From: Kiritimatiellia bacterium
GTDB taxonomy: Bacteria; Verrucomicrobiota; Kiritimatiellia; RFP12; DVOR01
Length of the DNA: 64,000 bases
Direction of reading: 5' to 3'
Assembly: GCA_017558005.1 (NCBI GenBank)
Contig: JAFYWN010000018.1
Location: forward strand, 3,696 to 67,695
Part shown: positions 19,873-34,238 of the stretch, in pieces
Layout of the letters: the number at the start of each line of letters is the position of its first letter
Numbering within the stretch: the first letter of the stretch is position 1
The notes under the pieces: generated by a model
Databases searched by the model: none
Seen by the model: the letters and a program-made list of their open reading frames with translations, nothing else
Told to the model about the DNA's origin: nothing
Translations under genes and position numbers: made by a program

Positions 19873-19985
19873 GCCGAAAAATCGCTAAAATTCCCCCAAA
19901 AGTGACAAACCTGCGTATGGGATTTTGAAGGAGAAAGAAGTGAGAAGTGAGGATTGAGAGAAGTGAGAAGAAAGGAGTGAGGAGA

Positions 19986-20061
19986 AGGGTGGGGGCTGTC
20001 TTCGCCCCCACACCCCTAAGGCAGGACTGAGTCCTGCACGCTACGCATCCTGACGGATGCT
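19986..20061. repeat. REP-like cluster of three GC-rich hairpins
   Basis: gtgggggc-tgtcttc-gcccccac; gcaggac-tga-gtcctgc; gcatcc-tgac-ggatgc. The first motif recurs at 56145-56170. Confidence 0.6.
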
Positions 20062-20146
20062 TTTACTGGTGCTCACGGAAAAAGAGGGGAGTGAGAGTAA
20101 GAAGTGAGGAGAAAGAAGCGTGGGGGCTACGTTGTAAATGATTAAT

Positions 20147-20280
20147 CTATCCATAATCTATCCGTAACCTATCTGAGCGACGGGCCGTTGCCCGTCTCAT
20201 CTATCCACCGATCTATCCACTATTGATCCACCTATCCATCACCTATCCATCCACCACTCTATCCACCGATCTACTATCCA
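20147..20280. repeat. CTATCC short-repeat tract, often 11-12 bp spacing, interrupted by a hairpin
   Basis: ctatcc at 20147, 20158, 20201, 20213, 20232, 20243, 20259, 20274; variants at 20169 and 20224; gacgggc-cgtt-gcccgtc hairpin inside. Confidence 0.75.
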
Positions 20281-20503
20281 TCCTTTCGTAAAAGTACCCA
20301 TAAAAGTTACCGAAAGCACTTTGAGGAATTCTTTTGCTTGCATATGAGATGGGGTAAATGGTAGGATATGGATGGTCCGTGGGAGTACGTACTTAAGGTT
20401 GCGTTACCTAAATGAGGGCGTACACTGCAGACGGACGTGTATCCAGTTGATGGCGTGGCTATGGCCACATGAATGACACTTTTATAAAGAAAGGAATAAG
20501 TAA

Positions 20504-21772
20504 ATGAATCTGAAATCCCTAATGGTGGCAGGCGTGAGCCTCGTGGCACTGATGGTGCAAGCGGCTGTGAATGTGACCAACGTGAAGGTCCAGCAACGTT
20601 ACCCCTGGAATGGCAAGGTAGACATTGATTACACTGTAACCTGTGATGATGCAGATGCCGACATCTGGGTCTATCCCATGGGCTTTGACCAAGATTCGAA
20701 AGCCTCCATGGCCTGTCGCGCCCTTGAAGGGGATGGGGTTGGAGCGCCGGTGAAGGCGGGTACCCATCGCATGACGTAGGATGTCTCAGCAGACTATCCG
20801 AATTTTAACTCCACAGCCTTTACTGTTAAGATGACCGCCTTAACAGGGGGGGCGCCCTATTTGGTGGTAGATTTGAGTGGTGGCGTAGATGCGCAGACCT
20901 ATCCCGTGAGCTACCTCTCCAGTATCCCCGCTGGCGGCTGGAGTGAGGAATACAAAACGACTAAACTCGTCCTGCGCCTCATTCCGCCAGGTACCTTCAT
21001 GATGGGCAGCCCCACCGATGAATTGGGACATGGTTGGAGTGGTTCTAATTACGAAACACTTCACCAGGTCACCTTGACGCAACCCTTCTATATCGGCGTC
21101 TTTGAAGTGACCCAGAAGCAGTACCAATTAGTTATGGATAGTGCTCCATCTGGCAACAAAGGTGATGCACGCCCAGTGGAGCGCGTTGCATATGACTATA
21201 TCCGTGGTACGGTTAATGGGGCGGCTTGGCCGAAGCATAACCAGGTGGATGCCAATTCCTTTATGGGCCGCTTACGCAGTAAGGTGAATCTGCTCTTTGA
21301 TCTGCCAACGGAAGCGCAGTGGGAATATGCCTGCCGCGCAGGGACCAGTACCGCGCTCAATAGCGGAAAGAATTTGACCGCGACAGGTAGTTGCGCTAAT
21401 ATGAACGAAGTCGGACGCTATAATTCCAATCAAAATGATGGCAAAGGTGGTTATAACAACTTTCACACAACGGTTGGCTCCTATCTCCCGAATGCGTGGG
21501 GGCTGTATGATATGCATGGTAATGTCGCCGAGTGGTGCTTAGATTGGTGGCAAAACAATCTTGGCGCTAACGCTGTGACCAATCCTAAGGGGCCGAATTC
21601 GGGGAGTTATCGTGTCATGCGTGGCGGCGCGTACTCTAACTACAATAGTTCAGGTTATGCTGCGGCGTGTCGCAGTGCCTATCGTAGCTACTTCCACAGC
21701 TACAACTATCCCTACCCTGGCGATGCGGAATACTACTATGGCTTCCGTGCGGTTTGCCTCCCCGTAGAGTAA
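20504..21772 (+). pseudogene. Secreted FGE-sulfatase (C-type-lectin fold) domain protein interrupted by an in-frame TAG at 20777-20779
   Basis: ORFs 20504-20779 and 20831-21772 are in one frame, separated by 17 sense codons. Signal peptide; PPGTFMMGSP, LPTEAQWEYACRAG, PNAWGLYDMHGNVAEW, RVMRGG, GFR. Confidence 0.8.
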
Positions 21773-21788
21773 TGGGAAAACGGAACGA

Positions 21789-21832
21789 TCATCTACGAAC
21801 AGGCCCTGGATGCGGTGTCGGTTCGTAGATGA
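21789..21832. other. 12-bp inverted repeat (stem-loop) just 3' of the FGE gene
   Basis: tcatctacgaac ... gttcgtagatga with a 20-nt loop. Confidence 0.7.
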
Positions 21833-21932
21833 AGGCTGGCGATGTGGGGTGTGTCTGTCATGAGAAATGCGAGCGGTCTTTGGGGGAACTCCTAAGGACC
21901 GCTATAGGACTCAAAACGCAAAGGACGTAAAG

Positions 21933-24900
21933 ATGACTACGCAAAAGACTTTTCGTGGAGTATTCCAGATGGTGTTGTTCCTTTTCTTGGGGTTGATGGC
22001 GCCTCAAGTAAAGGCTTCAACGGTTGCGCTTTTGAGTGATTCGAATACTGCAACGAATTGTACTGTGACGATGCAGGGGGTGGATGAGCAGCACAACCCC
22101 ATTTATTCTGTGATGCCGTGGGTGGAAAGTTCGCCGCGGATTCGGTTTGAGTCGCGTGCGTGGGCAGAGGAGGTGCGTTCTGCAGCATCGGCAGATCCGA
22201 CGGTGGTTGTGATGGGTGGGCGCTTGGGCGGGACTACGCCCACCTGGACCTCTGATAAAACCTTTTTAGTGATGAATTCGGTCTATGTGCCGAGCGGGGT
22301 CACCTTGACGATTCAGGCGGGCACAGTGGTGAAGTTCTGCCCAGGGACCTTTATTAAGATTGAAGATGGGGGCGCTTTAAATATCGTGGGCGCTGAGGGG
22401 CAAGATGTCATTTTGACGGCGGCGAATGACAATACGGTGGGCAGTCAAATTGTTGGGTTTGACGAGACACCCATCACGTTTGGCGGGATTGTGATTCAGT
22501 CGAGTGCGGCGAGTTTTAGCGAAAATGGGTATGTGCAGACACGTGGGTTTAAGTTTGGGAATTTCCCCACGTTGACATTGAATAACACGACCGCCTTTGC
22601 GTCGGGCGGGGTGGCGCGTATTCCCGTGACGCTCAATGGGGTGACGCGTGAGAAGATTTTTTCCATTGATTGGGTGGCCGAAGTCGATGGCGAGGCCTTT
22701 ACTTCGGGTAAGCTCACGTGGTCAAAGACGGGCGAGGGGACGAAGACGATTGAAGTGACTTTTGATGAGGCTTTTGCGTCTGCGCACGATGGATTCACGA
22801 TTCGTGTGGTGGCACATCGTGGGTGTAATGTCTCTTCGGAAACGTGTGCTGTGACCTTGAGTCAATGGGTAACTTTACCCATTGTGACTGGAATGTCAGA
22901 ATCCGCTGCAGTGGTCTATGAGGCGCGTGGGACTGCGACGGGCAAGCTCGTTCGTGGCGAAGTGACGCTGGGTGAACTCAAAGGGGGCGCAGCAACGCAG
23001 TGGGATACCACTGGCCTTTTGGATGGTTGGCAGACGGCAACTGTAGGTACAAATGCGACGGAGCTTTTGGTGCTCAATGATGCCACGATTGCGATTGAAG
23101 GGGGCCGTTTGGCTGCCGATACGACGTGGGATAACACGGTGACGCATTTGGTGCGCAATAGTGTCTATGTGCCGAGTGGGAAGACCTTGACGATTACGGC
23201 TGGTACAGTCGTGAAGTTTGGTGAAGGCACCTTTATCAAGGTGGAAGATGGCGGCAAGCTTACTGTCGTGGGTGCGGCAGGTCAGGATGTGATTTTCACC
23301 CCAGCGAATGATAACACTGTGGGGACAACTGTGCCCGGATTGGGTGATGAGACGATTACCTATGGTGGCGTGTGGGTGCAGTCGGGGAGTGCGACGTACA
23401 CGGATAATAGTTATGTGCAGTTGCGTGGGTTCAACTACGGGAGCTATCCCACGTTAACCCTAAATGATGCAACGCTATTTGCGACCGATGGAGTGGCCTA
23501 TTTGCCTGTGACGTTGAATGGCGTCACGCGAAATGCCGCATTCTCAATTGAGTGGGAGGCAGTGGTTGATGGTGAAGTCTTCCAGACGGGAGCATTGACT
23601 TGGTCTAAGACGGGCGATGGGACAAAGATTGTCGAAATTCCCTTTGATCGCACGTTTGGTGAGGCGCATGCCACCTTTACAGTGCGCATTGTAACGCATC
23701 GCGCGTGTAATGTGGGCCGCGGCGAGGCGACAGTCACCCTTTTGAAGCGTGAGACTTTAGCATTAGCAACCGATATCGCAACGTCACCTGCGGCACGCTA
23801 TGAAGGTCGTGAGGGGGAAACGGCAGCGATTGTGCGTGGTGAAGTAACCTTAGGCGAGCCCGAAGGGGGCGCAGCAACGCAGTGGGATACCACTGGCCTT
23901 TTGGACGGTTGGCAGACGGCAACTGTCGGCGAAAGCGATGCTGAACTCTTGGTGCTCAATGATCCGACGATTGCCATTGAAGGTGGTCGTATGACCGCGG
24001 ATGTGACGTGGGATAACACGGTAACGCATTTACTTCGTAATAGTGTCTATGTGCCGAGTGGGAAGACCTTGACGATTACGGCTGGCTCCGTTATAAAGTT
24101 TGGCGAAGGCACGTTTATCAAGGTGGAAGATGGCGGTAAGCTTAATGTCGTGGGCGCCGCAGGTCAAGATGTGATTCTCACCCCAGCCAATGATACTACA
24201 GTAGGGGCCCCTGTGCCCGGATTGGGTGACGAGACGATTACCTATGGTGGCGTGTGGGTACAGTCGGGAAGTGCGACGTACACGGATAATAGTTATGTAC
24301 AGTTGCGCCAGTTTAATTACGGGAACTATCCCACGGTGACCCTAAATGATGCGGTTGCACTGCGGAAGAATGGTGGCATTTATTTGGCGTTGACCTTGAG
24401 TGGCGCCACGCGCAATCAAGCCTTCTCTATTGACTGGAAGGCAACCGATGATACGGCGAAACTGGGACAAGATTATGCAGTTGCCTCTGGCTCGGTGACG
24501 TGGTCAAAGAGTGGTGAGGGGACGAAGTGGATTTATATCCCCCTCAACACAGATGAAGTCGCGGGAGAATCGCGCACCTTTACGGTGTCGATTGACGTGG
24601 CACGTGCAGTTAATGTGGCGCGTGGCGTGGCAACAGCACAGATTGATGAGTATGAAAATGCGGGCTTGAATGGTGACGAAGTGACGGTCACGGTGGGCAC
24701 TGAGTCCGCTGCGGCACCAATCCAAGAAGATATCGCAGAGCAGGTGCTCTTCTTGAACGACGTGGAAACAATTCAGTACAGTGGCCGTTGGCAGAAGTAT
24801 CCTGCAGAAGAAGCAACGAAACTGCGCGTCTCTTTGGCCACGGATAACGGCGTGACCGTCCTGAAGGAGACCACGCCAGACGATACAGGCGCATTTGATT

Positions 24901-27900
24901 TAACGCTCGCAGATTGGCCCGTGGGTTACTATACCTTGTCACATGAGGTTGAAAATGACTATGGCGAAGTGGTCGCCACGATGTCAAAGTCGTTTAGTAT
25001 TCTTGATCATGAAGATTATGAATGGCACGCTGGCACGTTGACGCAGAATGAACGCTGGACTGCGGATAAGGTGCATGTGGTTTATTCCACGGTCTATGTA
25101 CCAGCATTGTATACACTCTTCGTAGAACCCGGTGCCGTGGTGAAGTTTATGACGGGGGCGGGCATTGATATCTCGCAAGGCGGCGCCTTCTTTGGTGACT
25201 CCATCATCTTTACCCATGTGAATGATGATACGATTGGTGGTGACGTCCTCTCGGATGGGTATACTGTCGCGCCGCCGATGGATGCCTACTTCTTGAATGG
25301 TAGCTTCACCTTTGGTGATGATACGGAATTGCGTAACATTACTCAGAAGACTGCGCTCTCAGGTACGATCTCTTCAGATAAAAAGCTCTCCCGAGGATCG
25401 GTGTATCGTGTCTCTGGGACGTTGACCATTGCCAGTGGGGCGACGCTGACGATTCCTGCAGGAACGGTGCTGAAGATGGAGTCGGGGGCTACAATTAATG
25501 TGAATAGTGGTGCCACACTAAAAGCAGAAGGGACGCGCGCCCAACCCATTATCATGACCTCCATCAAAGATGACTCCGTGGGTGGAGACACCAATGGCGA
25601 CGGGAATAAGACAATGCCACAACCTGGTGATTGGCATCAGATTCGGGTCGCTGGAGGTACGTTTAATGCGAGCAACTTGTCAATGCTGTATTTAAGTAAT
25701 GGCAATAATCAGGGTGGTTTATTTGTGACAGGCGGAAGTGCGACATTAGATTTGTGCACAATCGCTCATTGCAAGTATGACGCGATGCGTTCCACGGGCG
25801 GTACGAGCTATGTTGTAAACTCTATTTTCACAGATGCATCAATTGGTGTGGCGCCGAATGGTGGATACGCCGAATACGTCAATTGTGTATTCCACTCCTT
25901 AACCACTGCGGTTCGTTGGCCTACAGGTAAATTTGTAAACTGTATCTTTAGTGAAGTTGCCTCTGTTTTCTTTGATTCTACAGGTTCAACTCCCATTCAA
26001 AATTGTGTTCTTTGGAATCCACAGGGATATGGGCCTCAATCAGTGAGTGTTACTGGCGCAAACGGCAACATTTGGGGCGATCCGCTCTTTGTGGATCCGA
26101 TGAATGGCGACTTCCGCATTGTGGAAGGGTCGCCGTGTGTGGATGCCGCCGATTCGATCGTGGCACCAGAAGTAGACTATTATGGTCAGCCACGTATTAC
26201 GATGACGGAGCAGGAAGAAGGCGCAGAACTGGTCGGTCAATTGGCAGATATTGGTATCTGCGAAGTGATGCCGCGTGACATCACCAGTGATATTGACTTG
26301 GTGCCGCTTAGCGTGCGTACGGCTTCTGAAGCAAAGATTGGTGAGCTACTCTTTGTGAAGTGGGAGGTGCAGAATGTTGGTGGTGCAGAGGTCTCAACTG
26401 CTTGGCGTGATACGATTCTCTTGGTTTCGGAGAGCGGTTGCACGGTGGCCTTGGGCGACAAGGTCGCAGGGAATCAGATCGTTGCAGGTGGTACAGTCTT
26501 CTGTTCGGGTTACTTTACGGTGCCTGCCATTGAAGAAGGCACATGGTATGTGAAGGTGAACGTCAATAGCTACCGCGACATCTTTGAAGGGTCGTTAATT
26601 CAAAATAATGCGTTGACGGGGGATCGTCCGATCACCCTTTCGTTGGACGCATTGGATGCGAATACCACGACAGAAGGCGTCGTGAATGCGAATACACCGA
26701 AGGTCTTGAAGTTTACCTATGACGAAGGTGACACCAATCGCATGATGACGGTGAAGGTGCCTGCAGGTGTCAAGGTGACATGGGGCTTCGATTTCGTGCC
26801 ACAGGGCGTCGCTAATTCGGGCTCGATGATTGCTGATGCCAATGGCGCCACGTTCCGCGTGCCTGAAGATGCTACAGATGTCTATGTCGTCATCGAAAGC
26901 GACACAACTGCAGAGTATGAAGTCTCGACCGACTCCACACAAATGGTGGTCACAAGTGTCTATCCGATGACGCTTCCCTCAAGTGGCAAAACGACCCTGA
27001 CCATCACCGGTGCAGGCTTTGATAAAGCATCCTCAATCGTTTTGTCAACAGGAGGCAAGGACTATGCCTTTGAATCGTTTGTTCAAAATGCGATGGGGAA
27101 TCTTGTCGCAACGGTGGACTGTGCCACCCTGCAAGCAGGAGCAGTGTATACCCTCACTGTCTCTGATGAAAATAATGCGGTATCTTTGACCAATGCCATC
27201 TCTGTCACAAAGGCAGAAGGTAAGGGTGAATTGGTGGCCAACTTGATTCTTCCTGAAAGTGCACGTCAAGGACGTATCGCAGTGGGGTACATTGAATACA
27301 CCAATGTTGGAACTGCTGATATGGACGCGCCAATTTTCAAGGTGATGGGGTGGCGTGAAGGTGGTCAAAAGACGGATATTGAGACGGCGCTATCTACCAC
27401 AATTGACGGTGAATTTACAGGTGAAATTCTCCTTGTAGGTATTAGCGCAACTCACCCAGCAGGCTTACTGAAGATTGGAGAAACGAATCGAATTCCTTTT
27501 TATTACAACGTTAACAGTGCTTTTAGCTTGAGATTGGCTGCGATTGACGCACAGTCGACATCTACACGTGATAGTATTTATCCTACATGGCAGTCGTTTA
27601 GCGAGGCAATCTCTGATGCAACAACAGAATTGAATCGTTTTGGAGAGTGTTTTGATTATAATGAAATTTATCGAGTTGCCATGCGAGCTGGTGTTGGTAA
27701 CGTTGTTACTACATTGCGTGGGCAAGTCTATTCAACTATAAGTGAGAGTCCTTGTGCGAATGTTACTTTACAGGTGTTTGAGTCAAATGCTGTCTTGTTG
27801 GAGAATATAACAACAAATGAAGATGGGTATTTTGAAATTAAGAATCTTAAAGTAGATGAAACATACACAATAGTTGCGAAAGGTAAATATCAATTTTCAA

Positions 27901-30900
27901 CAAATTGGTGCGCTAAAACTGCATCATTAGGAAGTGTAATCTTTTGGGTAGATCCATTAGGTGAGTTTACCTGTTCCGTAAAAGGTATTGCTGCTGATAA
28001 CGTTAATATTGTAGCTGTTGAAGTTAAAACAGGTCAGCGCGTGGAGGCTGATTTTGAAAACAATCTCTTCAATATAAAAGATTTAAGAGATGGCGAATAT
28101 ACTATTGGTGCTGAAATTAATGGGTATTATTGTTTAACCGACAATTACAACGTCACTGTTGATGATGGCGTAGCCTCTATTTCAAATGTTGAATTGGAGT
28201 TTGTCCCTTCTGGAGTCGTTGTTGGTACTGTCTTGAATGAAAAGGGAGTCCCTGTGCCCGCAGTTCAGTGTTTTGTTGAAAGAGAAGACGATGGAAAACG
28301 GTATGAGTTTTATTCAGATGAAAATGGACAATTTATAATTAACGTGCCTTCTGGCGTCTATATTGTAAGAACAGAAACTAACTATTCGCTTATCAAAGAA
28401 TATAAGATTACTGTAGTTAATCAACAAATTTCGCAAAAGGAGTTTATCGTTACGCCATGTCCCTTCATGCTTAAACCTGCAATGGGAATTGCTCCATTTG
28501 AATGTTCGTTGAAATGGAAAAAAGAATTTAATAATTATCCCGAGGCGATATCATTTGAATGGGATTTTGATAGTGACGGAGTCGTTGATTCAATTGAAGA
28601 AAGTCCAAAATGGACGTATACGAATGCGGGGGTGTATGACGTTACTTGTAATGTCACATTTGTTGATGGTACGCAAGTATTCTTTGCAAAAAAAGATGCG
28701 GTAGATGTATTGGCAGAAGAGATTGAAATACTTGCTGATGATACAGTGAAACTTGACAAATGGAGTGGTTGGGATATCATTGACGCAAGTGACGAATATA
28801 TCACAGTAAAATTTAATGAGCATTGTATCGCATCTTACTTGGACGTCGGAACGAAGATAATTCTTCCCGCGAACCCACTTTCACCATATAAAATTCTATC
28901 GCTTGAAAAGGTGGAAGACGATATGTTGTTGTTACAAGTTGAACCCATTTTCGTTGAACTTGCGTATGATACACTAGCAAAAACTTTTTCAGTAGAATTG
29001 ATGGCTGATGATAATGGATTTTATAATGGTGGCCACACGAAGTCGCTAACGCTCTCATCAGAAATTTCAAAATCTTTTTTGAATGACAAGCTTACGATTA
29101 CGGGGGGGGCATCCATTGGAGGTACTGCAACAGTTTTGATATATGAAAAAAAGCTTGAAAAGTGTGCTTTGAACGTAGAGGCAAAAGCAAGCCTTACAGG
29201 AACATTTAAAGTAGGGACAAATCTTAAAAAGGATGATGTAAAGAAGAAAAAGAACAAGAAAAAGAAAAAAAAGAAAAACGAGGATGACGATAGTAGATGT
29301 ACGATTGCGGAAAAGGTCATACTGGTTGGCTATGTTCCCATTGAGCTTAAACTTTACATCTTTGCAGATTGCGAGATTAGTATGTCGGGATCTATTACGA
29401 CAGAGGCGACTGCTTCTGTGGAGGCGGGATATTCTAAGGTTAAAGGGTGGTTTTCTGATGCTGAAGGAGATGCGAGTCTCGCGGACTTGAGTATAAATGG
29501 AAACGCTTCATTTTTCTTTGGTCTTGGGCTGGATGTCATCGCAGGGATGCCCAGCACCAAATTGACGAAATCTGTAAAACTGTCAGCATTAGACGGGACT
29601 TTTAAAGTAGGCCCTAATTTTTACGTTGATATTAAATATCATCCATCTGAGGATGAAGTGGCAGATGAGTACAAAATAGGTGCTGATATTAAATATGAGT
29701 TTACTGCAAATCTTTTAAATATTAAACTCTGGAACTTCTTGGATTGGAAAGCTCTTACATATACGGACGAACGCGCATGGCATATAATGATGTATACATG
29801 GAAGACTCCTATACCGTCATTTTATTGTGATGAGATTTATAGAGGGCAAAATCTTTCAACCGTTGAATTTAAACGAACAACTACGGTAGATCCTTTAGAG
29901 ACTCTGTTTAAATCCGGCTATTGGGAGATAAATGGTTGTGAATATCCTATTTCAACGTGGAATAATCAAACGGTGAGCCATGACTTCTATATCCCATCTG
30001 AGGATTCGGCAGATTCTGTTGAATATGATGTTGCGCTTTATGAATCATATAAGCCAGGGAATCCTCTATTTAGTAAATTAGTTCTGCCGGCATGTAAAGC
30101 AAATCGAACGACACTAACCTTTGGGACGGGGAAAGGTGAGGACGGTGGAGCAGGGTGGACCGGACTTGGAGGACATCAGGGAATACTTCCTCAATCCTGC
30201 GACCCCAATGAGATGGCGGGGCCGTTGGGGATTGGCGACCCGGAGACGGAACGTTTCGTCAAGCCGGGTGATTGGATGACCTATACGGTCTACTTTGAAA
30301 ACAAGAGTGATGCAACGGCTGCCGCGCAGGAGGTGCGTGTCACGAATCCGTTGAGTCAGTATCTTGATTGGTCGACCTTTGAGATGGGCGAAGTCTCCTT
30401 CAATAATCAAATTGACCTCGGGCTGAGTGGTAAGCAGACTGGGGCCAGTGAAGTCGCCTTGAATAACACCGCTTATAAGGTGAAGACGACTGTCGCTCTT
30501 GATCAAACAAAGGGTGAGGTGAATTGGTATCTGCGTATTGTGGACCCCTCCACGGAAACAACGTGGCCCGAGGATGTCTATGCGGGCATCTTGCCTCCCA
30601 ACGACGAGACGCATCGTGGTGAAGGTTACTTGACGTATCGCGTAAAGGTGCGTGAGGATGTACCCGCAGGGGTGCGGATTGATAATTCGGCAACGATTAT
30701 CTTTGACTATAACGAACCGATTGAAACAGACCCCGCGTGGTGGAATAGGGTGGTGCCGAGTCAGGTGCCGATGTCAATTTCTCCTGAAGCAACCCTCGTG
30801 GATGAGGGGGAAACGATCGAGGTTAAGGTCTTTGGCGGTGATTTGACGCGGCCGAGTTCGGCGCAGGTCTATTTGTCGTATCACACGGCAGCGGCTGCAG

Positions 30901-33900
30901 ACTTGGATTTGGCCAAGGCAACGGTGACGGGTGTCAATCAGACAGCGCCGAGTCGTACAAAGTTGGCCTTCCCCTTGACGTTGAATTGGGCCACGGGTGA
31001 AGTCGGCGAACAGACAATCCGAATCCCTGTGAAGGCAGACAAGACCGTGGAGGATGAGGAGACCTTTACACTTCAGCTCGCCAATCCAGAAAATATGGCA
31101 TTGGGGAGCAAGCAGGTGTGTATGGTGACGCTCCATGACACGAATGAAAAGGAACTGAAGGCAGCGGTGACGCCTTATAAACCGAAACCTGGCGAGTCGC
31201 CAGTGTCTCATCAGGTGACGGTTGGGCGGAATGATGGCGCTGCGGGCTTCGTGGCGGGGAGTGGTGAATATACCGCTGGCTCCAAGCTAACTCTCACCGC
31301 AGAGGCACGTCCGGGTTATGCCTTCGTGGGATGGGCCTTGAAGGAGGATCTTGAAAACCTTCTCTCCACCAATCCGAAGTATCAGATTGTGGTTGGTGAG
31401 GATGGCGACTATGTAGCTGTCTTTGAACCCATTCCCTATGTGCGTGGTCTTGCGACTCCGGCGGAGGGTGGTAAGGTGACGGGAAGCGGTTACTGTGCCG
31501 ACGGCAAGAAGGTGACCTTGAAGGCAAGCGCAAACAAGAACTTTGTCTTTAAAGGGTGGTATGCCGCCTCTGTGGAGAATCCGCAGACGCCTGATGAGGC
31601 GGTGTGCGTGGCAACAACGCCCTCGCTTGTGATTGATCGCACGGCAAAGCCGACGGCAAATTCAAAGACGTCAACGACGTTGACGGATATTGATGAGGAT
31701 GTCACCTTCTTTGCGCTCTTTGAAGGGGATCCACGCTTAGGTCTGACCATGATGCCTGAAAGCGCAGGTAAGGTGACGGGGGCAGGGCGCTATCTGCCAG
31801 GTACAAAGGTAACCCTGAAGGCAACGCCTAATAAGGGTTATGTCTTCGCAGGATGGTATCAGGATGAAGCCTTTACGATGCCGTGCGAATCCATGTTGGC
31901 GGACTATCGCAATCCAAGTTATACCTATGTGACGGGTGCAGCGGATGCAACACTCCATGCATGCTTTGTCCCCGCAGAAGAGGATCAGGTCTTAACATTA
32001 ACCGTTCAGAATAAGGTGAATGACGAGATTGCAGAAACCTTTACAATTAACGGAAAGGCTGAATTTGTACTTCTGGTGGACTCAAAGTCCTTGCCAAAGG
32101 CAACCGTGACAGGGCTTCCCACAGGCATGAAGTTCACGGCAACGCCTGTGATGGTGAAGGGGTCGAAGACCGAGGTGGAATATCCCATTAATACGATTTA
32201 TGGCACACCAACCAAGCCGGGCGTTTATACCGTAACAGTCTCGCTCACGAATAGCACAATTAAGAAGGCGATTACAAAGACCTTCGAAATTAACGTGCTG
32301 AACTTTACGGATGATTTGATCAAAGTAAAAGATTCTTACGGTCCATATGTTCCAGGTGTTTCGTATACCGTAGAGATTCCAGAAGCCGCAGGTTGCACGG
32401 TGACAGGTTTGCCCACTGGCATGAAGTGGACGGCAAAGGATATTATAGATTTAAAAACGAAGGAAGTAACAACGCCTGCGAACTCGGTCTATGGCATTCC
32501 GACGACACCTGGCAACTACACGGTCTATTTCACGAAGACGGTGGATAAGGTGAAGCACACGGCTACAGCAACCTTCATCGTGGGGCCGTATCCGCAGTTA
32601 ACCGTGGACGTTCCTGTGTGCACAGACGGAACAATTGGCGGTAAGGTGACGGGTGCGGGTGGTTTTGCCGCGAATAAGAAGGTTACCTTGAGGGCAACGC
32701 CAAACAAGGGCTATGTCTTCGCCGGGTGGTACAAGGATGCTTTCTTTGAAACACCTTGCGATTCCACGATAATGGACTATCGCAATCCAAGCTATACCTA
32801 TGTGATGGGTGATTGCGACACGCAATTCTATGCCCGATTCGTCACCAAGGAAGATGAAGCGGATTACAAGATGGGAATCGCTTTGTATCCATTGGATGCG
32901 CCGACTTTGGAAATTGATGAACTCGTTTACAAGGCGGGTGAAGCAATTTTGCCGATTTGGGTGATGGTGGATTCGCTCACCTTGCCAAAGGTGACCGTGA
33001 AGGGTCTCCCGAAGGGAATGCAGTTTGATGCCAAGACCTTCACGATTTCGGGAATGCCAACGCAACCTGGCGATTACGTCGTCTACATTGAAGCGGTCAA
33101 TGCTTCGAAGTCGTGTGTGGCAGTTGCGGAATTCTACTTCACAATCACACACTATGATGCACATGGGCTCCATCAGGATGAAGAAAAAGTCCTGATGGTA
33201 GCCGCCTTTGAAGCGGGTGAAATCGTTTTGGATGAGAACTTTAGTGACTTGTTGAACAGCGTTTCCGTCAAGTCATTCAAATTGCCCAGTGGCTTAAGCT
33301 ACGATTCAAAGACGAATTCCATCAAAGGCAATGGTACGCTAAAGTGTGGCACCTACGTCGCAACACTTACCGATACTGAAGGCAAAGTGACCTCCTTCAC
33401 GCTCGTGGCGGAACTTACCGACGAGGATAAGTTCACGTATCGGAACGCCCTATCACTTAATCCAGAATATGCTTATGGTTATGAGGGTATTGTTCAAGGT
33501 GTTAACGCAGAGGTCTTTTGGCTTGAGGTTCTAAAATCTTGCGATGATTTTGGAGGTGGTTCTGACGTTTGTTTATTGGACGCAGAAGAGGCTAAGGCAC
33601 TAAGTATTAAGGTCTCTGGTTTGCCGACGGGATTGAAGGCAAACTTTGAAAAAGAGTATGTTGAGGAGTGGGAGGGTGATGAATATGTGAGAGATGTCTA
33701 TGCGTGCGATCTTTGGTTGGAAGGTAAGACCTCGGCTGCGCCTGGAGATTATCATGTAACTGTAACCATCACGAATAGTCGTACAGGACAAGTGGAACAT
33801 GTTCCTTCATTAATTCGCATCTATCCTCCACAACCTATTCAAACGACTTGGAACGCTTCGTTTTCAACAGAAATGGTTGATGAAGAAACTGGCGAAGTGC

Positions 33901-34238
33901 GCAATGCACATGCGGATGTGGTCTACACCATTGATGGGACAAGCGGTAGTGTGACGTATTCTCTCACCATTGATCCGAGCATAAGTAATCCCACAGAAAA
34001 ACCAATCACAAGGTCTGGCAAGTTCTCCCTTTGGTGCATTGGTGTAAGAGAAAACTTAGACGGAGAGACATACTACTTGTATGAGTTTGACCACATTACC
34101 ATGACAACCGAAGTCTATGCATGGATTAATATCAATGCGTCACATGAGATTCAGTCTCTCCACTTTGATTATTGGGAAGAGCGTCTCTCAGATGTATATG
34201 ACTGGGTCCTCTGGGAGTGGGATGATTCTCCTTGGTGA
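21933..34238 (+). CDS. Giant (~4100 aa) secreted multidomain surface protein/adhesin
   Basis: Signal peptide MTTQK...QVKA with AAGGA-like RBS (start at 21933). Repeated beta-rich units, Calx-beta-like, choice-of-anchor-Q-like (GDPLFVD...GDFRI...SPCVDA), CARDB-like, IPT/TIG-like, carboxypeptidase-regulatory-like, PKD-like, SCDPNE domain, InlB-B/Flg_new-like and putative-Ig (GLPxG) repeats. Domain names assigned by eye. Confidence 0.85.
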   Translation: MTTQKTFRGVFQMVLFLFLGLMAPQVKASTVALLSDSNTATNCTVTMQGVDEQHNPIYSVMPWVESSPRIRFESRAWAEEVRSAASADPTVVVMGGRLGGTTPTWTSDKTFLVMNSVYVPSGVTLTIQAGTVVKFCPGTFIKIEDGGALNIVGAEGQDVILTAANDNTVGSQIVGFDETPITFGGIVIQSSAASFSENGYVQTRGFKFGNFPTLTLNNTTAFASGGVARIPVTLNGVTREKIFSIDWVAEVDGEAFTSGKLTWSKTGEGTKTIEVTFDEAFASAHDGFTIRVVAHRGCNVSSETCAVTLSQWVTLPIVTGMSESAAVVYEARGTATGKLVRGEVTLGELKGGAATQWDTTGLLDGWQTATVGTNATELLVLNDATIAIEGGRLAADTTWDNTVTHLVRNSVYVPSGKTLTITAGTVVKFGEGTFIKVEDGGKLTVVGAAGQDVIFTPANDNTVGTTVPGLGDETITYGGVWVQSGSATYTDNSYVQLRGFNYGSYPTLTLNDATLFATDGVAYLPVTLNGVTRNAAFSIEWEAVVDGEVFQTGALTWSKTGDGTKIVEIPFDRTFGEAHATFTVRIVTHRACNVGRGEATVTLLKRETLALATDIATSPAARYEGREGETAAIVRGEVTLGEPEGGAATQWDTTGLLDGWQTATVGESDAELLVLNDPTIAIEGGRMTADVTWDNTVTHLLRNSVYVPSGKTLTITAGSVIKFGEGTFIKVEDGGKLNVVGAAGQDVILTPANDTTVGAPVPGLGDETITYGGVWVQSGSATYTDNSYVQLRQFNYGNYPTVTLNDAVALRKNGGIYLALTLSGATRNQAFSIDWKATDDTAKLGQDYAVASGSVTWSKSGEGTKWIYIPLNTDEVAGESRTFTVSIDVARAVNVARGVATAQIDEYENAGLNGDEVTVTVGTESAAAPIQEDIAEQVLFLNDVETIQYSGRWQKYPAEEATKLRVSLATDNGVTVLKETTPDDTGAFDLTLADWPVGYYTLSHEVENDYGEVVATMSKSFSILDHEDYEWHAGTLTQNERWTADKVHVVYSTVYVPALYTLFVEPGAVVKFMTGAGIDISQGGAFFGDSIIFTHVNDDTIGGDVLSDGYTVAPPMDAYFLNGSFTFGDDTELRNITQKTALSGTISSDKKLSRGSVYRVSGTLTIASGATLTIPAGTVLKMESGATINVNSGATLKAEGTRAQPIIMTSIKDDSVGGDTNGDGNKTMPQPGDWHQIRVAGGTFNASNLSMLYLSNGNNQGGLFVTGGSATLDLCTIAHCKYDAMRSTGGTSYVVNSIFTDASIGVAPNGGYAEYVNCVFHSLTTAVRWPTGKFVNCIFSEVASVFFDSTGSTPIQNCVLWNPQGYGPQSVSVTGANGNIWGDPLFVDPMNGDFRIVEGSPCVDAADSIVAPEVDYYGQPRITMTEQEEGAELVGQLADIGICEVMPRDITSDIDLVPLSVRTASEAKIGELLFVKWEVQNVGGAEVSTAWRDTILLVSESGCTVALGDKVAGNQIVAGGTVFCSGYFTVPAIEEGTWYVKVNVNSYRDIFEGSLIQNNALTGDRPITLSLDALDANTTTEGVVNANTPKVLKFTYDEGDTNRMMTVKVPAGVKVTWGFDFVPQGVANSGSMIADANGATFRVPEDATDVYVVIESDTTAEYEVSTDSTQMVVTSVYPMTLPSSGKTTLTITGAGFDKASSIVLSTGGKDYAFESFVQNAMGNLVATVDCATLQAGAVYTLTVSDENNAVSLTNAISVTKAEGKGELVANLILPESARQGRIAVGYIEYTNVGTADMDAPIFKVMGWREGGQKTDIETALSTTIDGEFTGEILLVGISATHPAGLLKIGETNRIPFYYNVNSAFSLRLAAIDAQSTSTRDSIYPTWQSFSEAISDATTELNRFGECFDYNEIYRVAMRAGVGNVVTTLRGQVYSTISESPCANVTLQVFESNAVLLENITTNEDGYFEIKNLKVDETYTIVAKGKYQFSTNWCAKTASLGSVIFWVDPLGEFTCSVKGIAADNVNIVAVEVKTGQRVEADFENNLFNIKDLRDGEYTIGAEINGYYCLTDNYNVTVDDGVASISNVELEFVPSGVVVGTVLNEKGVPVPAVQCFVEREDDGKRYEFYSDENGQFIINVPSGVYIVRTETNYSLIKEYKITVVNQQISQKEFIVTPCPFMLKPAMGIAPFECSLKWKKEFNNYPEAISFEWDFDSDGVVDSIEESPKWTYTNAGVYDVTCNVTFVDGTQVFFAKKDAVDVLAEEIEILADDTVKLDKWSGWDIIDASDEYITVKFNEHCIASYLDVGTKIILPANPLSPYKILSLEKVEDDMLLLQVEPIFVELAYDTLAKTFSVELMADDNGFYNGGHTKSLTLSSEISKSFLNDKLTITGGASIGGTATVLIYEKKLEKCALNVEAKASLTGTFKVGTNLKKDDVKKKKNKKKKKKKNEDDDSRCTIAEKVILVGYVPIELKLYIFADCEISMSGSITTEATASVEAGYSKVKGWFSDAEGDASLADLSINGNASFFFGLGLDVIAGMPSTKLTKSVKLSALDGTFKVGPNFYVDIKYHPSEDEVADEYKIGADIKYEFTANLLNIKLWNFLDWKALTYTDERAWHIMMYTWKTPIPSFYCDEIYRGQNLSTVEFKRTTTVDPLETLFKSGYWEINGCEYPISTWNNQTVSHDFYIPSEDSADSVEYDVALYESYKPGNPLFSKLVLPACKANRTTLTFGTGKGEDGGAGWTGLGGHQGILPQSCDPNEMAGPLGIGDPETERFVKPGDWMTYTVYFENKSDATAAAQEVRVTNPLSQYLDWSTFEMGEVSFNNQIDLGLSGKQTGASEVALNNTAYKVKTTVALDQTKGEVNWYLRIVDPSTETTWPEDVYAGILPPNDETHRGEGYLTYRVKVREDVPAGVRIDNSATIIFDYNEPIETDPAWWNRVVPSQVPMSISPEATLVDEGETIEVKVFGGDLTRPSSAQVYLSYHTAAAADLDLAKATVTGVNQTAPSRTKLAFPLTLNWATGEVGEQTIRIPVKADKTVEDEETFTLQLANPENMALGSKQVCMVTLHDTNEKELKAAVTPYKPKPGESPVSHQVTVGRNDGAAGFVAGSGEYTAGSKLTLTAEARPGYAFVGWALKEDLENLLSTNPKYQIVVGEDGDYVAVFEPIPYVRGLATPAEGGKVTGSGYCADGKKVTLKASANKNFVFKGWYAASVENPQTPDEAVCVATTPSLVIDRTAKPTANSKTSTTLTDIDEDVTFFALFEGDPRLGLTMMPESAGKVTGAGRYLPGTKVTLKATPNKGYVFAGWYQDEAFTMPCESMLADYRNPSYTYVTGAADATLHACFVPAEEDQVLTLTVQNKVNDEIAETFTINGKAEFVLLVDSKSLPKATVTGLPTGMKFTATPVMVKGSKTEVEYPINTIYGTPTKPGVYTVTVSLTNSTIKKAITKTFEINVLNFTDDLIKVKDSYGPYVPGVSYTVEIPEAAGCTVTGLPTGMKWTAKDIIDLKTKEVTTPANSVYGIPTTPGNYTVYFTKTVDKVKHTATATFIVGPYPQLTVDVPVCTDGTIGGKVTGAGGFAANKKVTLRATPNKGYVFAGWYKDAFFETPCDSTIMDYRNPSYTYVMGDCDTQFYARFVTKEDEADYKMGIALYPLDAPTLEIDELVYKAGEAILPIWVMVDSLTLPKVTVKGLPKGMQFDAKTFTISGMPTQPGDYVVYIEAVNASKSCVAVAEFYFTITHYDAHGLHQDEEKVLMVAAFEAGEIVLDENFSDLLNSVSVKSFKLPSGLSYDSKTNSIKGNGTLKCGTYVATLTDTEGKVTSFTLVAELTDEDKFTYRNALSLNPEYAYGYEGIVQGVNAEVFWLEVLKSCDDFGGGSDVCLLDAEEAKALSIKVSGLPTGLKANFEKEYVEEWEGDEYVRDVYACDLWLEGKTSAAPGDYHVTVTITNSRTGQVEHVPSLIRIYPPQPIQTTWNASFSTEMVDEETGEVRNAHADVVYTIDGTSGSVTYSLTIDPSISNPTEKPITRSGKFSLWCIGVRENLDGETYYLYEFDHITMTTEVYAWININASHEIQSLHFDYWEERLSDVYDWVLWEWDDSPW

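Follow-up and report, generated by a model that had tools for sequence, protein, structure and literature searches.

The window analyzed here is a stretch of 64,000 nucleotides (C37:3696-67695) from a Kiritimatiellia MAG of 2.05 Mb in 37 contigs, 90% complete, which is also the genome that was searched. The part of the window considered here encodes a secreted lectin-type protein and, directly downstream, a giant surface protein, separated by a short leader with two hairpins. The features are:

20504-21772, forward strand: full-length lectin gene of 422 codons; homologs (420-430 aa) are colinear with it from Met1.
20777-20779, forward strand: in-frame TAG that replaces Trp92; same-species alleles have TGG.
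21602-21762, forward strand: segment homologous to the variable region (VR) of diversity-generating retroelements (DGRs) in sister lineages (RGG...CRSAYR...GFR...CLP), aligned with the pairs of VR and template repeat (TR) of loci L032 and L033.
21789-21832, forward strand: extended hairpin after the stop codon, whose outer stem has 12 bp and whose two inner stems have 3 bp each, ending in a GAUG tetraloop; no U-run follows.
21872-21903, forward strand: second hairpin, in the conserved leader that precedes the giant gene, with 13-nt arms that are 85% complementary.
21933-34238, forward strand: giant surface-protein gene, with beta-helix, Calx-beta, Flg_new and He_PIG repeats (Pfam domains of its orthologs).

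The lectin gene ends with a TAA at 21770-21772 and specifies a signal peptide, an Ig-like beta-sandwich and an FGE-type C-type-lectin domain, in that order. In the window, the gene is split by the TAG into ORFs of 91 and 313 aa. The ORF called from 20831 represents the distal part only, as homologs align from the ATG at 20504. Trp92 is invariant among 44 aligned sequences. The window's allele, TAG included, is unchanged on 8 public contigs, and the split products (P0122 and P0123) are on record from 8 such contigs; because these products recur, the TAG is a true nonsense allele rather than an assembly error. Judged from these comparisons, the TAG at Trp92 is a probable inactivating nonsense mutation, and this copy of the lectin gene a probable pseudogene, a feature that the original prediction had overlooked. 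Reassignment of TAG was considered and set aside: all aligned homologs have Trp at the position, two same-species DNA alleles have TGG, and the fact that sister-lineage genes terminate with TAG also speaks against it. Upstream of the gene, at about 20140-20290, lies a tract of CTATCC(A)-type repeats whose length depends on the strain, with ~43 nt missing in L012 and L013; this tract could be a variable regulatory region. An Rfam scan of 19900-22100 gave a single match, a sub-threshold Yfr1 at 19961-20011, also upstream of the lectin gene, and no family for either hairpin or for the leader (21773-21932).

The gene had been described as FGE-type from its letters, and the Pfam family FGE-sulfatase (PF03781) matches it with E = 4.6e-39. 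So strong a match, together with the appearance of PvdO and FGE in a PDB sequence search, would also fit a functional formylglycine-generating (or SUMF1/EgtB/PvdO-type) enzyme with a C-terminus that merely looks odd, and human and bacterial FGE (SUMF1; PDB 1Y1E, 2AFT) and PvdO do have the Pfam family and the fold in common with the window's lectin. However, a HMMER alignment to 2AFT/2AFY places Asn at the catalytic Cys336 of human FGE and Gly at Cys341; the protein is secreted, with a signal peptide and an additional Ig-like N-terminal domain; the loops expected to make up an active site are hypervariable among strains; and the gene is interrupted by a stop. We consider an enzymatic role to be scarcely credible.

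The AF2 model of the protein (pLDDT 84, pTM 0.83) is beta-rich in residues 22-123, followed by an FGE fold. Among solved structures it best matches TvpA of Treponema denticola (2Y3C, E = 9e-16), with PvdO and FGE following. TvpA uses the FGE fold as a scaffold for binding, with no enzymatic role (PMC5758913), and by analogy with it the lectin fold would serve the same purpose; we infer that the window's gene encodes a secreted binding protein with no enzymatic function, in which the Tyr/Ser/Asn-rich C-terminal loops are presumed to form the ligand-binding surface. TvpA and the window's lectin both have the FGE-subclass C-type-lectin fold without catalytic cysteines, and the variable residues of TvpA lie in C-terminal loops running from RGG to GFR that match the window's segment. 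Sequence identity between the two proteins is ~25%, and the window's protein differs by its N-terminal Ig-like domain, by its constant pairing with a giant beta-helix protein and by strain variation that is not restricted to adenines. TvpA belongs to the HRDC-type Treponema DGRs, known as “architecture C” (Wu et al. 2018, PMC5758913); the combination of an HRDC accessory gene with a reverse transcriptase (RT) is found likewise in the sister lineages of the window's gene, whereas the window's genome yielded no TR, RT or HRDC partner.

The original prediction held that the 3' end of the gene resembles a DGR variable region, dense in NNY codons between conserved anchors. The anchors lie where they were placed: cgtggcggc (RGG) at 21620-21628, cgcagtgcc (within CRSAYR) at 21671-21679 and ggcttccgt (GFR) at 21740-21748. 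The density of NNY codons is genuine as well. Within the two variable segments 25 of 31 codons are NNY, compared with 234 of 391 (60%) in the remaining gene (Fisher p = 0.022), a modest excess that is fully explained by a Tyr-rich composition, Tyr making up 10 of the 31 residues (32%) in these segments and 5% elsewhere in the gene. At residues whose third position is free, NNY accounts for 9 of 14 codons in the variable segments against 61%, which is no enrichment (p = 1). In the window's allele, 30 of the 31 variable-segment residues can be reached from AAY codons.

Given such numbers, the likeness could be a coincidence, that is, a generic variable loop of an FGE domain with no relation to DGRs. 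Besides the modest and explicable NNY excess, this would agree with the fact that RGG, RSAxR and GFR are motifs found throughout the FGE family and that most surveyed members have no DGR nearby, with an RT close by in just 2 of 80 more distant genome loci, a survey in which the positive control (L032/L033) was recovered. The closest solved fold, however, is that of a DGR variable protein, and proteins 74-77% identical to the window's, in a like module of lectin and giant gene, are diversified by DGRs over exactly this segment. A purely coincidental likeness is, in our assessment, improbable.

The evidence for these DGRs comes from the homologs themselves. A protein search returned ~120 strong homologs of the window's lectin, from Kiritimatiellia/Lentisphaerota-like MAGs, many of them from the ruminant gut. 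Sister lineages represented by P0004 and P0133 are 74-77% identical to the window's protein. In the first, a 90%-identity cluster (P0004, P0126-P0129) that is 77% identical to it, the members are identical save between RGG and GFR; a 169-aa ORF with an HRDC domain comes right after the lectin gene, and the RT ORF has at its end a 159-nt repeat of the lectin 3' end. The second DGR lineage is the P0133/P0018 cluster (loci L122-L124), with 45 member sequences bearing the NCBI name Kiritimatiellia bacterium. Loci of both lineages (L032/L033 and L122-L124) have the same gene order: FGE lectin, HRDC, RT with the TR, giant gene. The two lineages share 58.5% identity in the RT and 61% in the HRDC protein.

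In these sister DGRs the TR measures 159-164 nt, and its translation reads RGGCW-NDNNN-AGYAAACRSGYRS-NNYNNNTNPNNSYNY-WGFR. The mismatches between TR and VR have the signature of adenine mutagenesis: 15 of 16 in L032 are TR-A to VR-N (the remaining one is of another kind), all 11 positions that differ in L123 are A-to-N, and 52 of 53 substitutions among four VR alleles of the P0004 lineage fall at TR adenines. Positions 21602-21762 of the window align with the sister VR codon for codon, with a length difference of one codon. Sequence comparison thus indicates that the window's segment resembles a DGR VR by shared ancestry and not by chance, because sister proteins 74-77% identical, in a like module, have VR/TR pairs over this very segment. 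The same comparison describes the module as a lectin gene, an optional DGR cassette and a giant gene. The sister DGR loci and the window share the domain order, the downstream giant gene, homology in the VR segment and a hairpin past the stop codon; unlike the window's lineage, the sister loci possess HRDC, RT and a TR of 159-164 nt.

Several observations on the sister loci deserve mention in their own right. In L033 (3263-4600) and L123 (2291-3634), the annotated RT ORF contains the TR in its 3' end and reads it in another frame, and at both loci the giant gene begins right at the stop of the RT ORF. Some sister VRs carry in-frame insertions relative to the TR in AAC-repeat tracts, of 6 nt in L033 (2488-2652) and 3+9 nt in L035 (~1143-1316), while every substitution in these VRs is still adenine-specific. 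Such a change in length is unusual for DGRs and suggests template slippage. In-frame indels among the alleles of the window's species are no argument against a DGR, since these genuine sister VRs have insertions as well. P0018, encoded on a Logan contig of 1613 nt, has an Asn-rich “VR” in the style of a TR, and a foreign tail, AAQGLILKTG, in place of the family's C-terminal AE (LPAE); it is probably a chimeric assembly of VR and TR.

We then consider the machinery. The window had been reported to hold no RT, Avd or template repeat, and this absence was confirmed and extended to the 90%-complete genome. BLAST with 21560-21840 (E <= 10) found no second copy in the genome beyond chance matches of 14-21 nt. 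An adenine-tolerant scan was run with 60-nt pieces on both strands of the 37 contigs, mismatches at genome adenines being counted apart; in the 90%-complete genome, it recovered no TR but the segment itself alone. Each of the next-best positions showed 9 or more non-A mismatches and 22 or more A mismatches per 60 nt, and these are A-rich chance matches. Neither search, then, found a copy differing only at adenines, as the original prediction had proposed to look for. The check for a DGR RT came out the same way: the 90%-complete genome contained no candidate for Pfam RVT_1, and tblastn with two sister DGR RTs (E <= 10) reached a best E of 0.39, with none credible. Avd (PF05635) was likewise absent from the 90%-complete genome. 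Sister HRDC proteins used as queries produced one weak match of 54-58 aa (E ~3e-4) on contig C14, far from the lectin gene, which is consistent with a generic HRDC domain elsewhere. Among the same-genus genomes, 0 of 24 have an RVT_1 match. Exact-pattern scans of IMG/VR with the VR anchors found nothing, and the JGI metagenomes gave no match to the 3' anchor, although both collections probably lack the window's organism; the central anchor gave 67 chance or unrelated JGI matches, with no close allele, TR or RT among them.

These results bear on the proposal that the gene is an active target of a remote DGR, whose TR and RT would lie either in the 10% of the genome missing from the assembly or on a phage or plasmid of the same population that escaped binning, and would still act in trans. 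For the HRDC-type DGR of Treponema, remote targets at distances of over 100 kb from the RT have been described (PMC5758913). The homolog of the VR and the downstream hairpin are both kept here, five distinct alleles exist in one species, and the MAG is just 90% complete. On the other side stand the searches: no RT in the genome or in 24 relatives of the genus, no TR in the adenine-tolerant scan, and no allele, TR or RT through the anchor patterns in IMG/VR and JGI. The identical allele on 8 contigs, which hints at a stable sequence, and its being a pseudogene also count against an active target, as does the pattern of variation among strains.

Within the window's species, strain L012 is 97.9% identical to the window over the upstream 8 kb, and the synonymous divergence of three neighboring housekeeping genes provides a background dS of 0.068. 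The species has five different lectin alleles, and between strains the lectin gene diverges far more, with a synonymous divergence of 6-14x background. For the window and L012, dS is 0.18 for the N-terminal domain, 0.41 for the FGE scaffold and 0.96 for the VR-equivalent, in which dN amounts to 0.36; with L012 and L014 taken together, the ranges are 0.34-0.41 for the scaffold and 0.96-0.99 for the VR-equivalent. Third-position changes are frequent, as are the non-NNY codons ATG, GTG, GTA and GAA, and variable patches extend well upstream of the VR (aa 177-184, 217, 293-298, 307-311 and 318-321; nt ~21032-21466). The alleles are also mosaic: a derived block in the 3' part of the VR is common to L012 and L014, and the window has part of patch 3 in common with L014. 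A DGR-bearing pair, L033/L034, offers the contrast: dS is 0 for the entire gene, and all 15 nonsynonymous changes lie in the VR. Alleles of the sister DGR loci differ in the VR alone and at TR adenines alone, while those of the window's lineage are old and recombining.

The high dS, the third-position changes and the changes outside the VR are the reason for reading these alleles as old and recombined, and the sequences indicate long-lived recombining alleles under diversifying selection, unlike the outcome of repeated retro-homing. The site-restricted variation expected of the proposed target is not seen; synonymous and third-position changes are many and reach well beyond the VR, and the derived block common to L012 and L014 implies that strains have not each been re-randomized. 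Since the 90%-complete genome yielded neither TR nor RT, and neither Avd nor a credible HRDC gene, and the 24 relatives have no RT, the remote-target proposal is largely refuted by the standard that the original prediction set for itself; it is unsupported and, in our view, decidedly unlikely. What stood of the original prediction is the resemblance, which is a true homology to the VR of sister lineages. Loops outside the TR-covered region are hypervariable both in the DGR-bearing P0018 cluster and in the DGR-less window species; the entire binding face of the lectin appears to be under diversifying selection, with a retroelement or without, and we infer that selection is the driver of the strain variation.

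The hairpin after the lectin gene had been put forward as a further likeness to DGR targets, with the reservation that its loop was longer than in characterized DGRs. The inverted repeat is present as described, with fully complementary 12-nt arms at 21789-21800 and 21821-21832, 20 nt between them, and 17 nt past the stop. However, additional pairing within the 20-nt “loop” (3+3 bp) reduces it to 4 nt, GAUG, and therefore the objection concerning loop length disappears. The hairpins of phage DGRs lie 4-34 bp downstream of the VR and have GC-rich stems of 7-10 bp with a GRNA loop (Guo et al. 2011, PMC3240598). The window's structure resembles the hairpin/cruciform of BPP-1-type targets in being an inverted repeat a short distance (16 nt) past the VR with a 4-nt terminal loop, and differs in its 12-bp outer stem, its GC content of 42%, its internal bulges and its GAUG. 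It is kept in two other strains, with a change to a U-G wobble in L014 and one mismatch in L012. Stable hairpins of unrelated sequence follow the lectin stop in every lineage, DGR-bearing or not, and as relatives without a DGR have them too, the presence of this hairpin does not by itself point to one; it may be a transcript-end or processing structure.

In three strains of the species the lectin stop is followed by ~160 nearly invariant nucleotides and then by the giant gene. This intergenic leader (21773-21932), which holds both hairpins, varies less among strains than the flanking coding DNA. The giant protein itself is 54% identical in amino acids to the product of the sister-lineage giant gene. 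Just past its signal peptide, an insertion of ~1.1 kb differs between same-species strains (window 22047-22065 compared with L012 11552-12659), and the rest of the giant gene is 86-97% identical between strains, compared with 97.9% in the upstream housekeeping DNA.

In all family members for which the genomic context was examined, the lectin gene has a giant gene downstream, and what varies is the content of the interval. Nothing lies between the two genes in the window's own species and in P0014; P0011 and P0100 have a Zn-ribbon gene, P0048 has a minus-strand gene, and the P0004 and P0133 lineages have the DGR cassette. In a tree of the lectin family built with the variable columns removed, both DGR-bearing lineages fall within one clade of 18 members (support 82/88), which also includes the DGR-less P0011. 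The window's species lies outside this clade, and the base of the tree is a polytomy. On this topology, parsimony favors a gain of the DGR within the 18-member clade, and repeated loss across the family is possible. For the window's lineage, the loss of a DGR and its never having had one are close to equally probable, with a slight lean toward the latter, which parsimony favors.

Taken together, the sequence evidence makes it likely that this lectin copy is a DGR-less, inactivated member of a protein family known as DGR targets. The secreted lectin, which is paired with the giant beta-helix surface protein, would bind ligand through its C-terminal loops. In at least two sister lineages, an HRDC-RT-TR cassette between the two genes rewrites these loops by adenine mutagenesis; in the window's lineage, where the VR homolog and hairpin are present with no TR, RT or accessory gene, the segment would not be retro-diversified. 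Differences among strains of the window's species would represent old polymorphism among alleles that recombination has shuffled and diversifying selection has acted on, and a TGG-to-TAG nonsense mutation would have knocked out the gene in the window's strain. Some points count against reading the copy as DGR-less. The MAG is in 37 contigs and 90% complete, so absence is no proof; DGR cassettes on mobile DNA often escape binning. Five alleles are also much variation to arise with no dedicated mechanism, 30 of 31 residues are AAY-reachable, and a hairpin is kept past the VR-equivalent as at DGR targets.

The FGE-lectin class of DGR targets was already known, while the HRDC-type DGRs of the sister lineages are newly seen, and the main value of the window's gene is as a DGR-free comparator for them. 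Annotators should note that a VR-like C-terminus does not suffice to call an FGE-type lectin a DGR target. Within the family, lineages in which the retroelement acts on the protein can be set beside lineages that lack it; their substitution signatures are clearly different, and these pairs could help to show how DGRs are gained and lost and which ligands the module of lectin and giant protein binds in the ruminant gut. We tentatively entertain the possibility that the module first became hypervariable through ordinary mutation and recombination, a state that persists in the window's species, and that an HRDC-RT-TR cassette, inserted later between the two genes in a single sub-clade, adopted the existing variable loops for its VR. 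In that case the window would represent the “before” state of DGR recruitment, and the family would be a natural experiment in which DGR-driven and DGR-free diversification of one binding surface can be compared.
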